Shown: one piece after another, positions 15,286-19,997 of the stretch
How positions within the stretch are numbered: position 1 is the first letter of the stretch
Layout: every line of letters begins with the position of its first letter
Sequence record: DRR378314_1550
Length of the DNA stretch: 20,000 nucleotides
Direction: 5' to 3' (one strand)
Made by a program: the position numbers and the translations under genes
The notes under the pieces: generated by a model
Seen by the model: the letters and a program-made list of their open reading frames with translations, nothing else
Told to the model about the DNA's origin: nothing
The model's database searches: none

Positions 15286-16776
15286 TTAGTGCCCGCCCAT
15301 CAGCTTATCGACAGCGTCGGGTTTGTCATGTACGCCAAAGCGATCAACGATGGTCGCGCTGGCTTCATTAAGCCCTATAACTTCCACTTCAGCACCTTCA
15401 CGGCGGAATTTTACTACAGCACGGTCAAGTGCATCGACGGCGGTGATATCCCAGAAATGGGCCTGACTGAGGTCGATGACAACCTGCTCAACCCCTTCTT
15501 TGAAATCAAATGCGCCAAGAAACTTTTCAGATGAGCTGAAAAATACCTGACCAATGACCCGATAAGTGCGTTTTATGCCGTCAGAGTCAATCTCTGACTT
15601 AATGTACAGGTAATGCCCAATTTTGTTCGCAAAGAACATAGCGGCCAACAGCACACCAACCAATACACCATAAGCCAGGTTATGTGTTGCGACAACGACC
15701 GCAACTGTTGCAACCATGACAATATTGGTGGACAGCGGATGTTTCTTTAAGTTCTTAATGGAACTCCAGCTGAAGGTACCTATAGAGACCATGATCATTA
15801 CGGCAACCAGTGCGGCCATAGGAATTTGCACCAGCAGTTTGTCCAGAACCAGAACCATAATCAGCAGGAAGATACCGGCAGTTAATGTAGACAACCGTGT
15901 ACGACCGCCCGATTTCACATTAATAATGGACTGACCAATCATGGCGCAACCAGCCATTCCGCCTAACAGACCTGCGCCGATATTCGCAACGCCCTGACCT
16001 TTACATTCGCGGTTTTTATCGCTGGGGGTATCGGTTAGGTCGTCGACAATAGTCGCTGTCATCATGGACTCAAGTAAGCCCACTACCGCAAGCGCTGCCG
16101 AGTAAGGGAAGATAATAGCTAAGGTTTCGAAGTTTAACGGAACGTCAGGCCATAAGAAAATAGGCAGGGTGTCCGGCAATTTACCCATATCACCAACGGT
16201 ACGAATATCCAAACCTAAGAATACGGCGACGATAGTTAGGGATACAATACAAATCAGCGGAGAGGGCAGTATTTTCCCAATGAAAGGTATGTAAGGGAAG
16301 CCGTAAATAATGGCTAGGCCAGCAGCTGTCATTGCGTATACATGCCAGGTTACGTCAGTTAGCTCCGGCAATTGCGCCATAAAAATCAGAATGGCCAGAG
16401 CATTTACGAAACCGGTGACCACCGAGCGCGAGACAAAGCGCATCAGCTCGTCCAGTTTAAGGTAGCCGGCAGCAATTTGCAGCAAGCCGGTCAGTAAGGT
16501 GGCCGCTAACAAGTACTCAAGCCCATGCTCTTTGACCAGCGACGCCATAAGCAAGGCCATGGCGGCGGTTGCGGCAGATATCATCCCCGGACGACCGCCG
16601 GTAAAAGCAATAACAACGGCAATACAGAAAGAGGCATACAGGCCCACTTTAGGGTCAACGCCGGCGATGATAGAGAATGCGATGGCTTCAGGAATAAGCG
16701 CTAAAGCGACCACAATACCTGACAACAAATCACCACGTATATTAGAAAACCAGTTCTGCTGGATAGACTTCAACAT
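15286..16776 (-). CDS. SulP/SLC26-family anion permease with C-terminal STAS domain
   Basis: '[19 protein letters not shown]', 'GLYASF', '[11 protein letters not shown]', '[11 protein letters not shown]', STAS 'GQVFFSS...[17 protein letters not shown]'. Confidence 0.95.
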
Positions 16777-16876
16777 AGATAGATAACACCAAATTTTAAT
16801 CGTAAATATAAAGCGGCCGGAATGGCCAGAAAAGCAGAGAACAGCCTACTGCGCACCTGTGACAGGAAAGTGACGG

Positions 16877-16903
16877 CTAGGGTGGCGTAATACGCGTCAG
16901 CAC
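16877..16903 (-). CDS. Putative leader peptide (uORF) MLTRITPP upstream of sulP
   Basis: Minus strand reads TAAGGAG-ccacctac-GTG CTG ACG CGT ATT ACG CCA CCC TAG; SD AAGGAG (16912-16917) 8 nt from GTG; in-frame TAA just upstream. Confidence 0.6.
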   Translation of the reverse strand: MLTRITPP

Positions 16904-16949
16904 GTAGGTGGCTCCTTATGGTTTGAGGCTGGTCAAAAAAAGAGCGCGA

Positions 16950-16977
16950 ATTTTAGCATAAAATGTGCCAACTACAA
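16950..16977 (-). promoter_or_regulatory. Candidate promoter of the leader-sulP-usp unit (sigma-70 extended -10, overlapping sigma-54-like site)
   Basis: TTGTAG-N16-TAAAAT with TG extension (TGcTAAAAT); the same DNA reads TTGGCAC-ATTTT-ATGCT (GG-N10-GC). Confidence 0.5.
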
Positions 16978-16986
16978 CCGAAAAAA

Positions 16987-17664
16987 TTATTTTCGGTTGC
17001 TGTCCGGGGCATTGCGTTGTGACGGGTCACTTTTAAAGTCGCTGACCAGCTTGCGCGGGTTCAGCGCTTCGCGTTGTTTTTGTGTGGCTTCGGCCCACCA
17101 GCATAGCTGATTCAGAGTGCGCCCGAAATATTGGATCCAGCGCTCAGTGTCCTCAACCTCCTGAGTGAATTTGCCGTTTTCCTCAAACACGGTTTGCGCT
17201 TTAGGCACGTGGATCATAGCGGATACTGGCAGACAGCCTAACTCTGACAGGAAAGTGCGCATGTTAACCGCAGCGCGAACGCCACCCCACTGACCAGCCG
17301 AATAAGTCACAATGGCACTGGGTTTATAGGAGTACAACGACGCACCGAAGTGGTTCAGTAAATTTGCTAAAGCCGGACTCATGGAGTGGTTGTACTCAGG
17401 GCTGACCATAACGTAAGCATCGGCGGCTTCAATCTTTTTAGCCAGAGCGTCTAACTGTTCGGGAACGTCTTTTTCATGGTATGAAAAATGTGGCTTAAAA
17501 ACATCCTCAAATGGATAATCTAAAGGGTCAATAAGTTCGACTTCTGCGTTATCGAAGCTTTGTTCCAGGTAATTAACGCAGGCCTTTGCCACACGTTCGC
17601 CCAATCTGGCTGGCTTGGGCGGCGTACTGTCACGTACCGTACCTAAAAACACTAAATATTTCAT
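16987..17664 (-). CDS. NAD(P)H-dependent FMN reductase / flavodoxin-like oxidoreductase
   Basis: FMN-binding 'FLGTVR', 'ADAYVMVSPEYNHSMSPALANLL', 'KPSAIVTYSAGQWGGVRA'; AAGGA SD. Confidence 0.88.
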   Translation of the reverse strand: MKYLVFLGTVRDSTPPKPARLGERVAKACVNYLEQSFDNAEVELIDPLDYPFEDVFKPHFSYHEKDVPEQLDALAKKIEAADAYVMVSPEYNHSMSPALANLLNHFGASLYSYKPSAIVTYSAGQWGGVRAAVNMRTFLSELGCLPVSAMIHVPKAQTVFEENGKFTQEVEDTERWIQYFGRTLNQLCWWAEATQKQREALNPRKLVSDFKSDPSQRNAPDSNRK

Positions 17665-17679
17665 TGTGGTTCCTTAATA

Positions 17680-17735
17680 GTAGCCTGACATTTACGTCAG
17701 GTCAGATATCGCACCTGACATAAATGTCAGGCTAC
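17680..17735. repeat. GTAG-family REP doublet (REPIN/BIME-like)
   Basis: GTAGCCTGACATTTACGTCAGG (17680-17701), 12-nt spacer, inverted copy CCTGACATAAATGTCAGGCTAC (17714-17735); each unit is GTAG plus an imperfect palindrome; the units differ at 1 of 22 nt. Confidence 0.88.
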
Positions 17736-17741
17736 GACATA

Positions 17742-18953
17742 TCAGACGCGATGCTGCTCCCGCTCGGGCAAAAAGCTAATTGCTGCCGTGGATAATAGCA
17801 ATAACAGTGTTGATATCATTAGGCAAGCAACCAGCCCCCATTGCTGATACACCCAGCCGGATAAAACGGTACCCATTAGACGCCCGGCTGCGTTGGCCAT
17901 GTAGTAAAAGCCTACGTCCAAAGACACCCCGTCGGCGCGTGAGTAAGAGACAATAAGGTAACTGTGCAGCGACGAATTAATGGCAAACAGAATGCCGAAC
18001 AGCCCTAAGCCAATAATAATGCTCTGGGTAACGGGTAAGCCCTGCCAAAGCGCCAGAGCAAGTGCTAGAGGGCTAAGAGTCAGTAGCGCATTCCATACAA
18101 CAGTCTGAGTTTTCGGTACATCATTGCCCGTTTTTGTGAATTTAGGCGCAACACTTTGTACAAAGCCATAGCCAATAACCCAAAGTGCGAGAAAACAGCC
18201 GACTTGCCAGTGGTTCCAGTTAAGCTGGCTGGCTAAGAACACCGGCAAGGCCACCACAAACCAGACGTCGCGGGCACCAAAGAGCAGAAAACGGGCACCC
18301 GATAAAATATTGATAGGCCGGCTTTTGGATAAAATGTCTTTAAACTTGGGTTTGAACTTAGCTTTGCCCGACTCTTTTTTCAGGAAAATAAGACTGCCTG
18401 TCCACACAACCGCCAGCACTATTGCCATAGCCAGTACCGCGCCCTGAAAACCCATTAAGGTAAGCAGGAGTCCGCCGAGGAAAAAGCCAACGCCTTTTAA
18501 GGTGTTTTTAGAACCGGTCAGTATGGCGACCCATTTATACAGCTGATCTTGTTTGTCGTCAGGCACCAGTAGCTTAATGGTGCTTTTGGCGCTCATTTTG
18601 TTGAGATCTTTGGCAATACCAGACAACGCCTGGGCGGCCATCACCCAAATGACGGTGAGCATAGAGCTCGGTACCAGCAGCATTGCAAGCGCCACAATCT
18701 GTATGCCGAGCCCAATGTTCATGGTGCGATTGAGCCCCCAACGAGCTCCCAGCCAGCCACCAAATAAGTTAGTGACTATGCCGAAAAACTCATAAAACAG
18801 GAACAGCATAGCCACTTCCAGCGCGCTATAACCTAGCTGATGGAAATGCAGCACCACCAGCATACGCAGTGCACCATCAGTCAGGGTAAAAGCCCAGTAG
18901 TTACCCGTAACAATTAAGTATTGGCGTATAGCAGGCGACAGCTGACTCAGCAT
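17742..18953 (-). CDS. arsJ: Organoarsenical efflux MFS transporter ArsJ
   Basis: 'VTGNYWAFTLTDGALRMLVVLHFH', 'AQALSGIAKDLNKMSAKS', 'LTGSKNTLKG', 'FLLFGARDVWFVV', 'DVGFYYMANAAGRL'; ATG at 18953 overlaps the GAPDH stop (TAATG), so start trimmed from 19001. Confidence 0.93.
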   Translation of the reverse strand: MLSQLSPAIRQYLIVTGNYWAFTLTDGALRMLVVLHFHQLGYSALEVAMLFLFYEFFGIVTNLFGGWLGARWGLNRTMNIGLGIQIVALAMLLVPSSMLTVIWVMAAQALSGIAKDLNKMSAKSTIKLLVPDDKQDQLYKWVAILTGSKNTLKGVGFFLGGLLLTLMGFQGAVLAMAIVLAVVWTGSLIFLKKESGKAKFKPKFKDILSKSRPINILSGARFLLFGARDVWFVVALPVFLASQLNWNHWQVGCFLALWVIGYGFVQSVAPKFTKTGNDVPKTQTVVWNALLTLSPLALALALWQGLPVTQSIIIGLGLFGILFAINSSLHSYLIVSYSRADGVSLDVGFYYMANAAGRLMGTVLSGWVYQQWGLVACLMISTLLLLLSTAAISFLPEREQHRV

Positions 18954-19948
18954 TAGCCTACCTTTTCTACCAGTTCCACCGCACGGTTTGCATAACCCCA
19001 TTCGTTGTCGTACCAGGCATATATTTTCACGTGCGTGCCGTTAATGACCTTAGTCGACAGAGCATCGACAATGCTTGAGCGAGGGTCAGTTTTGTAATCT
19101 ATCGACACTAACGGGCGCTCTTCGTAGCCTAAAATGCCTTTGAGTTCGCCTTCTGACGCTTCTTTCATCCAGCCGTTAATTTCTTCAACTGAGGTGGCTT
19201 TTTGCACTTCGAAAACACAGTCGGTTAACGATGCATTCGCTAAAGGAACCCGTACCGCATGGCCGTCAATTTTATCTTTGAGCTCCGGGAAAATTTCGAC
19301 AATGGCAGAGGCTGATCCGGTAGAGGTCGGAATTAAGCTCATGCCGCAGGCACGGGCACGGCGTAAGTCTTTGTGCGGCGCATCCAGAATGGTCTGCGTA
19401 TTGGTTAAATCGTGAATGGTGGTAATTGACGCGTGCTTAATACCAATTTTGTCCTGCAATACTTTGACCACAGGCGCCAGACAGTTGGTGGTGCAGGACG
19501 CGGCGGTGAGAATTTGATGTTTATCAGGGTCGTAAAGGTGATCATTAACGCCCAAAACAATGTTCAGCGCTCCGGACTCTTTCACTGGAGCCGAGACCAC
19601 CACGCGTTTAACGCCCTGTGACAGGTAGTCGTTGAGCACTTTCACGGTTTTCATTTTGCCGGAGGCTTCCAGAACCACATCACAACTACTCCAGTCGTTC
19701 TCGGCAATGGTTTTGTGTTGAGTGAAAGCTATGCGTTCATCACCAATTTGAATGGCATTGTCCTGACCTTCGGCTTCATATCCCCAGCGACCATGCACCG
19801 AGTCAAAATTCAGCAGGTGCGCGAAGGTTGCAGCATCAGCGCCCGGGTCATTCACCTGAACAATCTCCAAATCAGGGTTTTCCCACGCCACGCGAAGCGC
19901 TAAACGACCAATACGACCCAAACCGTTAATTCCAACCTTAATAGTCAT
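18953..19948 (-). CDS. ArsJ-associated glyceraldehyde-3-phosphate dehydrogenase
   Basis: '[15 protein letters not shown]', catalytic 'ASCTTNC', '[19 protein letters not shown]', 'WYDNEWGY'; translationally coupled to arsJ; start at ATG 19948 with AAGGAG 6 nt upstream. Confidence 0.93.
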
Positions 19949-19975
19949 AAAAGACTCCTTTTGTGTATCTCCGAC

Positions 19976-19997
19976 GTAGCCTGACATTTATGTCAGG
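19976..19997. repeat. GTAG-family REP element (partner copy may lie beyond the window edge)
   Basis: GTAGCCTGACATTTATGTCAGG; 19975-19999 is an exact 25-nt reverse complement of 17712-17736. Confidence 0.88.

Follow-up and report, generated by a model that had tools for sequence, protein, structure and literature searches.

Why would the 210-nucleotide (nt) gap in front of a transporter gene carry a strong Shine-Dalgarno (SD) sequence followed by a frame of only eight codons, the last two of them for proline? The gap belongs to a 20,000-nt stretch of DNA from sequence record DRR378314_1550 (the window), where it extends from the stop codon of a flavin mononucleotide (FMN)-reductase-type gene at 16987 to the ATG at 16776 of sulP, which encodes a SulP-family anion transporter and is followed by usp, the gene for a tandem universal stress protein. 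All locus elements discussed here are on the minus strand of the window. An earlier reading of this stretch (the original prediction) interpreted the short upstream open reading frame (uORF), MLTRITPP-stop, as a leader peptide gene whose translation gates sulP-usp expression. The peptide, its SD sequence TAAGGAG with an 8-nt spacer, the 210-nt gap and the weak GGTG of sulP itself were all located in the sequence where that reading had put them, and so were a pyrimidine-rich tract, two small hairpins, and the segments CACCTAC, AGGTG and GTAGG. The comparison of orthologous loci described here partly supports the leader-peptide interpretation. We tentatively propose, with a confidence that falls somewhat short of even, that the uORF is the leader peptide gene of a mobile promoter-leader-sulP-usp cassette, in which the dwell of a ribosome at Pro-Pro-stop would gate sulP-usp by shielding the RNA from Rho loading.

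An SD sequence and a short open reading frame (ORF) in a single 210-nt gap are not beyond chance, which by a rough estimate yields them in a few percent of cases. That the uORF exceeds chance follows not from the one window but from its conservation among orthologous upstream regions. We assembled 80 ortholog loci with SulP proteins 75-93% identical, from Idiomarina, Pseudidiomarina, Pseudomonas, Stutzerimonas, Marinobacter, Halomonas, Alcanivorax, Cellvibrionaceae, Halieaceae, Thiobacillus and others, which gave 76 distinct 300-nt upstream regions with the window included. A uORF was counted when a short ORF ended in Thr or Ser followed by Pro-Pro-stop ((T/S)PP-stop) and had an in-frame start within 25 codons. 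Such a uORF is present in 42 of the 76 regions, and in 44 when any residue is allowed before Pro-Pro. In 200 dinucleotide shuffles the mean was 0.34 regions and the maximum 3, the reverse complements of the upstream regions contained none, and other 300-nt windows of the same loci had one in 15 of 3344 cases. Conservation of the uORF and its PP-stop in orthologous leaders was a test that the original prediction had set beforehand, and these counts bear it out. Within the Idiomarinaceae, conservation in the leader is confined to the promoter, the TPP-stop block and the ribosome-binding site (RBS) of sulP. Taken together, the alignments indicate that the leader uORF is real and under selection.

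The same element is found on mobile DNA. A tblastn search with SulP gives matches on 2158 plasmid records, and the plasmid carriers of sulP-usp include IncHI2 and IncF plasmids and Acinetobacter dif modules, often with arsenic-resistance genes adjacent. When 12 proteobacterial plasmids were opened, 11 had the uORF: Leclercia IncHI2, Klebsiella, Citrobacter, Pantoea and Providencia plasmids carry MRITPP or MRLTPP with TGA as the stop codon, a Proteus plasmid carries MHITPP, P. aeruginosa and Shewanella plasmids carry MIWLPTPP, and three Acinetobacter plasmids carry MLLTPP or MTLTPP. The enterobacterial version of the leader is present in 50 of 5426 complete E. coli genomes. Public annotations at sulP-usp, including those of E. 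coli genomes that have the leader, list protein-coding sequences only. The twelfth plasmid, from Aeromonas (L094), carries another short uORF, MSFKPH-TAG, with a pyrimidine tract behind it; a uORF of the form M(M)S(I/F)KPH-TAG with a pyrimidine-rich tract is common to this plasmid and a Shewanella genome (L028), 188-199 nt upstream of sulP. No TPP-stop uORF was found before four more distant orthologs, from Sinorhizobium, Bacillus, Pseudonocardia and Staphylococcus.

The 89 rows of a quick SulP tree sort into TPP (51), xPP (2), start-stop (7) and sul1 (1) leader classes, with 28 rows that have none of these. The uORF occurs in almost every subclade of the proteobacterial SulP clade, and its losses are scattered. 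In four loci (L022, L047, L073 and L076) the uORF is lost, the promoter is kept and the leader is shortened, a pattern that fits a dispensable negative module; in some other loci that lack the uORF, sulP lies directly behind another gene. Although usp is directly 3' of sulP in 68 of the 80 ortholog loci, the uORF tracks sulP and not usp, given that Acinetobacter modules with sulP only retain it.

Two other leader types precede orthologous genes. All seven loci of the Thiobacillus/Hydrogenophilales clade (L024, L035-L041; 99% support on the quick tree) are without the TPP uORF and instead have an invariant ATG-TAA or ATG-TAG start-stop element. This element sits about 30-37 nt after an invariant TGGACA/GATAAT promoter and about 140-200 nt upstream of sulP, and is followed by a pyrimidine-rich stretch. 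The second type is an RNA motif, sul1 (RF03058), that the original prediction had singled out for an Rfam scan. The window itself holds nothing of this kind: at the gathering score no family, sul1 included, is found in the 20 kilobases (kb), and at E<=10 the interval 16650-17100 yields two noise matches only, with no sul1. However, sul1 does stand before a Sinorhizobium meliloti plasmid ortholog (67.5% identity, L085), at L085:1367-1422 and about 80 nt before the start codon, where it scores 76.5 bits against a gathering score of 36.2. This ortholog has no tandem usp gene 3' of it, and sul1 was not found in the gamma- and betaproteobacterial loci scanned. The motif has been described as a cis-regulatory element without a known ligand, mostly located before predicted sulfate transporter genes and also before genes for serine acetyltransferase and S-adenosylmethionine (SAM)-dependent methyltransferases; sulfate binding was not observed (PMC5737381).

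Is the conserved TPP-stop block a translated frame, or is it a nucleotide motif that merely resembles one? Codons and SD sequences were tabulated for 46 distinct leaders. The Thr/Ser position is occupied by ACG in 33, ACT in 4, ACC in 1, the serine codon AGT in 6 and the leucine codon CTT in 2. The first proline codon is CCG (27) or CCA (19), the second is CCC (23), CCA (14), CCT (8) or CCG (1), and the stop codon is TAG (39), TAA (5) or TGA (2), with three more TGA stops in additional plasmids. Variation of the synonymous type, which the original prediction had also anticipated, thus affects both the wobble positions and the stop codon. The residue before Thr/Ser is P, L, I, A or V in 45 of the 46 leaders. 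Upstream of this, the N-termini of the peptides, which are 6-20 amino acids (aa) long, are unrelated in both sequence and length, such that only the last 4-5 residues are conserved, and every leader bearing the motif has an in-frame ATG, GTG or TTG. Such variation is what a translated frame shows when its C-terminus alone matters. Sister Stutzerimonas leaders provide a natural Pro-to-Ala variant at the penultimate residue, with MIRLPTAP-stop in L059 and MIRLPTPP-stop in L077.

Several features run counter to a coding interpretation and could instead mark an RNA element or a site to which a protein or small RNA binds. The genetic code would allow a wider choice of codons than is used, with ACG in 33/46, only CCR as the first proline codon and TAG in 39/46; C directly follows the stop in 35/46; and in Pseudomonas conservation reaches beyond the block, to CTGGCWGCC on its 5' side and CGC on its 3' side. 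Moreover, a good SD sequence is missing in many leaders. The original prediction had stressed a strong SD sequence, and this is right for the window, where the duplex of TAAGGAG with the 3' tail of 16S RNA (-8.5 kcal/mol) is the strongest among the 46 leaders, but it is not general, as only 17 of the 46 reach -4 kcal/mol or better. We nevertheless regard such a nucleic-acid motif as very unlikely, because the changes in the block sit at wobble positions, all three stop codons are used and are always in frame, an in-frame start is present in every leader at a variable distance, and the replacement of Thr by Ser uses another codon family (AGT). In addition, neither an Rfam family nor conserved pairing was found for it, and the nearest genome (G001) has a single copy in leader position. 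The copy count made in this genome also led us to set aside a dispersed, multi-copy regulatory motif: the 12-nt motif has 3 matches there compared with 2 for a control, two of these matches are inside long ORFs, and the copy in the sulP leader is the only intergenic one. The prevalence of TAG raised the idea that the leader might sense release factor 1 (RF1) specifically, which is weakened by the TGA stops in L081, L083 and L096-L098 and by TAA elsewhere.

The elements of the leader, in the order in which RNA polymerase would meet them, and the two genes behind it are listed in Table 1. The start codon and SD sequence of the uORF lie inside the 5' leader, downstream of the conserved -10 box, as would be expected of a leader peptide gene. 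A TAnnnT box followed by CGCGC(C), aligning with the -10 box of the window, is kept in 12/12 Idiomarinaceae leaders, and by eye the same arrangement of -10 box and discriminator is seen in many other genera. From this alignment, transcription of the sulP-usp leader is predicted to start near 16943; neither the promoter nor its -35-like hexamer appears in the output of a consensus promoter scan. The codons CCA CCC TAG (16885-16877) place two prolines directly before the stop, and 100 nt of leader separate this stop from the sulP ATG in the window. The pyrimidine-rich patch that begins immediately after the stop is a candidate start for a Rho loading site. Farther along, CACCTAC (16910-16904) could be matched with AGGTG (16858-16854) or GTAGG (16849-16845), the terminator-like TGGCC/GGCCG hairpin is shared with a 93%-identical relative (L001), and Pseudidiomarina relatives have AAGTGA at the position of the GGTG of sulP.

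Table 1. Coordinates of the sulP leader elements and of sulP-usp in the window.
Feature	Position	Strand	Basis
-35-like hexamer TTGTAG, weak, 16 nt upstream of the -10 box	16972..16977	-	read from sequence, 3/6 consensus matches
Extended -10 box TGcTAAAAT, then GC-rich discriminator TCGCGC and a T-run	16950..16958	-	alignment with relatives
Shine-Dalgarno TAAGGAG of the leader peptide, 8-nt spacer to GTG	16912..16918	-	sequence
Leader peptide gene GTG CTG ACG CGT ATT ACG CCA CCC TAG, 8 codons, 27 nt, MLTRITPP-stop	16877..16903	-	
First pyrimidine-rich patch, directly 3' of the stop, 13/16 C or T	16861..16876	-	sequence
Small hairpin CCTG-tca-CAGG	16856..16866	-	conserved only in the closest relative
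Second pyrimidine-rich tract, CTGTTCTCTGCTTTTCT	16828..16844	-	sequence
Weak terminator-like hairpin TGGCC-attcc-GGCCG, then CTTTATATTT	16804..16828	-	terminator scan
Weak SD-like GGTG of sulP, 10 nt before ATG	16787..16790	-	sequence
sulP, SulP-family anion transporter with STAS domain, 496 aa	15286..16776	-	Pfam Sulfate_transp + STAS
usp, tandem universal stress protein, 288 aa	14420..15286	-	Pfam Usp, 2 stretches

Behind the stop codon, the 46 leaders are rich in pyrimidines and poor in G: pyrimidines make up 72% of the first 10 nt (C 46%, G 16%) and on average 68% of the first 30 nt, with a median background percentile of 0.03 and a place in the top 5% in 28 of 46. C exceeds G behind the stop in 40 of 42 leaders, with a mean skew of +0.18. 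In the window, pyrimidines account for 65% of the 60 nt that follow the stop, a share that ranks in the top 3.4% of its 60-nt windows. The distance from the stop to sulP ranges from 91 to 246 nt among the leaders. An intrinsic terminator was rejected as the general read-out, since terminator-like sites occur in only 9/46 leaders, compared with 4.7 +/- 2.0 in shuffles.

In the leader of the window in particular, the position of the ribosome might decide whether the TGGCC/GGCCG hairpin and its U-run (16828-16804) form, in the manner of a classical attenuator. The hairpin is in the output of the terminator scan and is kept in the closest relative (L001), a clearer terminator-like site is present in a Klebsiella plasmid leader (L083), and the sites across the family are about twice as frequent as in shuffles. 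Even so, we judge an attenuator of this kind to be distinctly improbable for this Idiomarina leader: the stem has 5 pairs only and its U-run is interrupted, the hairpin lies 49 nt past the stop codon, beyond the reach of a paused ribosome, no conserved anti-terminator partner was found, and 37/46 leaders have no terminator-like site at all. Furthermore, the leader as a whole folds no better than its shuffles (minimum free energy -38.3 kcal/mol, z = +0.63). RNAalifold, applied to 16 Pseudomonas and Stutzerimonas leaders, likewise finds no covariation and 3 invariant pairs only. The alternative folds and specific hairpins to which the original prediction had drawn attention are therefore neither conserved nor unusually stable. 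By eye, a hairpin whose sequence varies can be made out 25-35 nt past the stop in Pseudomonas and Stutzerimonas leaders.

Alternatively, the read-out might be translational, as in erm-type or SecM-type leaders, with a ribosome at Pro-Pro-stop remodeling the leader to expose the weak RBS of sulP. The non-canonical SD sequences of sulP (GGTG here and AAGTGA in Pseudidiomarina) would suit such a device, and several Pseudomonas leaders do gain RBS accessibility when the uORF region is masked (from 0.33 to 0.55 in L007 and from 0.27 to 0.51 in L049). Over all 46 leaders, however, the unpaired probability of the RBS is 0.48 compared with 0.46 in shuffled leaders, masking changes it from 0.48 to 0.51 compared with 0.46 to 0.47 in the shuffles, and pairing of the post-stop tract with the RBS is not enriched (0.83 pairs versus 0.86 in shuffles). 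The window is essentially unchanged by masking (0.56 to 0.57) and has 0 tract-RBS pairs. These values show no effect beyond the shuffled controls, and so we discarded general RBS unmasking by a parked ribosome. A distance of 91-246 nt is also long for direct unmasking, and the absence of a consensus structure points the same way, making a translational read-out improbable overall.

The reading that we rank first, and hold provisionally as a little less than an even bet, is that dwell on the stop codon gates Rho loading. Rho gating is favored because the geometry of these leaders, with a 91-246-nt spacer and no general terminator, matches that of tnaC, speFL and cruR, and because a general terminator, RBS unmasking and a consensus structure have been eliminated. 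Formation of a Pro-Pro bond needs elongation factor P (EF-P), and a C after the stop codon is a weak termination context. These slow-termination features coincide here, in that Pro-Pro precedes the stop and C follows it in 35/46 leaders. In E. coli, Pro-Pro before a stop slows termination, as the original prediction had stated; termination is reported to be impaired by a C-terminal Pro-Pro whatever the context tested, and the peptidyl-prolyl-tRNA of YbeL-PP has half-lives of 21-32 s (PMC3834316). By analogy with YbeL-PP, a stall may be expected at the Pro-Pro-stop of the window. In tnaC, speFL and cruR, a ribosome stalled on the stop codon is described as shielding a rut (Rho utilization) site from Rho (PMC12360218).

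Under this mechanism, the leader would be transcribed from its own extended -10 promoter (16958-16950), and a ribosome would load at the strong SD sequence, translate eight codons and reach Thr-Pro-Pro-UAG. There, slow formation of the Pro-Pro bond and still slower release of the Pro-Pro chain would cause the ribosome to dwell on the stop codon, with the length of the dwell serving as the regulatory variable. The parked ribosome would most likely cover the start of the pyrimidine-rich, G-poor RNA behind the stop and keep Rho off, allowing RNA polymerase to continue through the 100-nt leader into sulP-usp. Conversely, if the ribosome were quickly gone or had never loaded, Rho would terminate transcription within the leader. 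Both the involvement of Rho and the direction of control in this scheme are modeled on the known leaders and are proposed as such. The stop-to-sulP distance of 91-246 nt is too far for coupling.

A number of observations weigh against this interpretation. The leader sequences are related, so that the uORF counts given above do not represent independent events. The SD duplex is weaker than -4 kcal/mol in 29/46 leaders, and some uORFs start only 9-10 nt behind the -10 box (L018, L023 and L034), whose leader-peptide mRNAs look leaderless or nearly so. The sister clade with the start-stop element has no prolines, and if that element is equivalent, prolines are not the sole route to the same effect. 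Sites of the rut type are not reliably recognizable from sequence, and the window is a weaker case than the average of its family: the first 30 nt after its stop are only 60% pyrimidine (21st percentile) and its C>G skew over the first 80 nt is ordinary (27th percentile), such that the first 60 nt alone stand out. Finally, its weak hairpin at 16828-16804 makes intrinsic termination a possible read-out in this particular leader.

What, then, would such a device sense? It is possible that it senses nothing and that the uORF, although translated, simply parks a ribosome that sets a constitutive level of expression, for example by protecting the 5' end of the mRNA from RNases or by blocking Rho constitutively. 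With as few as 6 aa, the peptide has no room for a sensor domain of the kind found in TnaC, SpeFL and CruR, Pro-Pro-stop stalls in all E. coli contexts tested (PMC3834316), and plasmid transfer between very different hosts favors a host-independent device. Nevertheless, the conserved Thr/Ser and the hydrophobic residue or Pro before Pro-Pro exceed what a generic stall needs, several lineages without the uORF still keep the promoter and the gene, and the riboswitch-like RNA before the alphaproteobacterial ortholog hints that this gene is controlled conditionally. On balance, we think a device without any sensing unlikely.

If there is a signal, the candidates would be the state of the proline-decoding or termination machinery, or a small molecule that acts on the terminating ribosome; a tunnel sensor of the TnaC or SpeFL kind would need a longer peptide. 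Equivalence of the ATG-stop clade, if so, would argue against proline-specific inputs and for termination or ribosome occupancy as the common step. The presence of sul1 before an orthologous gene suggests that control of the transporter is conditional and tied to sulfur metabolism. In a more speculative version, to which we give little weight, the terminating ribosome with its bound release factor would itself be the sensor, the release rate of the hydrophobic-Thr-Pro-Pro chain would be set by an input linked to the transporter, and the TPP-stop leader would be the gamma/beta counterpart of sul1, responding to the same signal. This idea could be extended to the bare fMet of the ATG-stop clade. 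One possible route is the action of a small oxyanion or sulfur metabolite at the peptidyl-transferase center, comparable to that reported for boric acid at the plant AUG-stop, and another is sulfur or SAM status relayed by the SAM-dependent methylation that release factors or tRNA-Pro undergo.

The genetic surroundings are those of an accessory module. The stop codon of sulP overlaps the start of usp, and the sulP product scores under the family cutoff of TIGR00815. Partnership of SulP with a universal stress protein has been treated before (PMC11699434), and sulP-usp figures in work on Acinetobacter dif modules as a pair of cargo genes (PMC6449649). Upstream of sulP lie genes for an ArsJ-associated glyceraldehyde-3-phosphate dehydrogenase (GAPDH), the ArsJ permease and the FMN-reductase-type protein. 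This arsenate module, at 16987-19987, is directly upstream of sulP-usp, and the arsenic link is recurrent, since sulP-usp adjoins arsC, arsB or arsR on plasmids as well (L081, L083 and L096). On Shewanella, P. aeruginosa and Aeromonas plasmids (L092-L094), a TraR/DksA-family zinc-finger gene is directly 3' of sulP-usp. Just upstream of the sulP leader promoter, a 10-base-pair A/T-rich hairpin (CAACCGAAAA / TTTTCGGTTG) at 16975-16999 spans the stop codon of the FMN-reductase gene and may be a terminator that separates the FMN-reductase and sulP units. Between arsJ and the FMN-reductase gene (17680-17736) is a palindromic repeat resembling repetitive extragenic palindromic (REP) elements, with two CCTGAC...GTCAGG hairpins in inverted order; it has 61 matches in the nearest genome, both strands counted, and is also multi-copy in contigs of sequencing runs. 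Four RNA-library runs from one sample contain contigs of 8-22 kb from a relative with about 92% identity across the locus, and these give no transcript start, end or level.

The sulP-usp pair is among the most widely spread accessory gene pairs, and yet no leader peptide for sulP or sulP-usp was described in the full-text literature searched, which agrees with the view in the original prediction that this module lacks a characterized one. Searches of that literature with the leader peptide strings returned two unrelated matches only. To our knowledge, termination arrest at Pro-Pro-stop is otherwise familiar only from an engineered protein end (YbeL-PP); the proposed mechanism, if true, would represent its natural use. 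A leader of about 6-14 aa in which only x-Thr-Pro-Pro-stop is fixed would then also be one of the smallest natural ribosome-pausing regulators. The occurrence of three leader devices before one orthologous gene (TPP-stop, ATG-stop and sul1) provides three independent handles on the signal and on the ligand of sul1, an orphan since 2017, and the locus gains interest from the fact that an orphan riboswitch candidate or a start-stop element can apparently take the place of the TPP-stop leader. A 2025 review of Rho-dependent regulation contains neither a sulfate nor a sulP case, and the word 'sulfate' is absent from it (PMC12360218).

Comparison with known systems places the sulP leader near several of them. 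Classical amino-acid attenuators of the trpL, hisL and pheL type, which combine a row of regulatory codons with terminator and anti-terminator helices that exclude each other, are poor matches, with only two proline codons and no conserved helix in the present case. MgtL, the 17-aa leader peptide of Salmonella mgtA, has scattered proline codons and acts through alternative leader helices. The sulP uORF differs from it in that Pro-Pro directly precedes the stop and the search for conserved helices found none, although both leaders stand before a transporter gene, and the proline codons of MgtL are described as setting Rho-dependent attenuation (PMC12360218). In E. coli, the small uORFs PepNL and NanCL need no inducer to arrest at their stop codons and affect the downstream gene; as with the sulP leader, no clear mechanism of RBS masking has been found for them (PMC11890864). 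PepNL, however, is 14 aa long, folds into a mini-hairpin that blocks release factor 2 (RF2), is relieved by UGA read-through and has no Pro-Pro end. YbeL-PP shares with the uORF of the window a Pro-Pro immediately before the stop, and undergoes A-site mRNA cleavage and ssrA tagging (PMC3834316), but it is a protein end engineered for the study of ribosome rescue and not a natural regulatory leader.

Among leaders of other kinds, sul1 occupies the same place in the 5' leader of an orthologous SulP gene, but is a structured RNA and not a coding frame. The ATG-TAA or ATG-TAG element of the Thiobacillus clade resembles the AUG-stop of plant NIP5;1, a minimal uORF before a solute-channel gene whose termination stall responds to the transported solute (PMC11915504), except that NIP5;1 is eukaryotic and acts via mRNA decay. 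We regard the links of NIP5;1 and sul1 to the signal as leads and not as evidence.

The closest parallels are TnaC and CruR. Like the uORF of the window, TnaC is encoded by a short uORF with Pro as the last residue before the stop and a long spacer without an intrinsic terminator, and like the sulP leader it precedes an operon that contains a transporter gene. Its stop-codon ribosome shields an adjacent rut site (PMC12360218), as we propose by analogy here. In contrast, TnaC has 24 aa and depends on free tryptophan and on sensor residues far from its end, whereas in the sulP leaders the last 4-5 residues are conserved, the peptides go down to 6 aa, and N-termini that are unrelated to one another leave no place for distant sensor residues of the TnaC type; the two peptides have no sequence similarity. 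CruR, encoded in Bordetella pertussis cruR-bfrG and grouped here with the CutF-like proteins, has a Pro-rich C-terminus that ends in Pro-Pro at the stop, stalls ribosomes at the stop codon and controls a transporter through a Rho-dependent read-out (PMC12360218, PMC9973294), a read-out that we likewise propose for the sulP leader on the strength of this resemblance. The CruR spacer of 162 nt (PMC9973294) falls within the 91-246 nt of the sulP leaders. However, CruR has a CXXC copper-binding motif and a RAPP end, and the sulP peptide is much shorter and is without a metal-binding motif. Nor does it carry the RAPP/RGPP motif of ApdA, ApdP, SecM-like peptides and the CruR end, as the residue before Pro-Pro in the 46 leaders is Thr (38), Ser (6) or Leu (2) and never Ala, and the residue two positions before is P, L, I, A, V or T and never Arg. 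By these likenesses, the sulP leader would work like TnaC and CruR while being a member of neither family. Thus, it most likely belongs with the known regulatory leader peptides that pause ribosomes at termination, as one that is newly described here.

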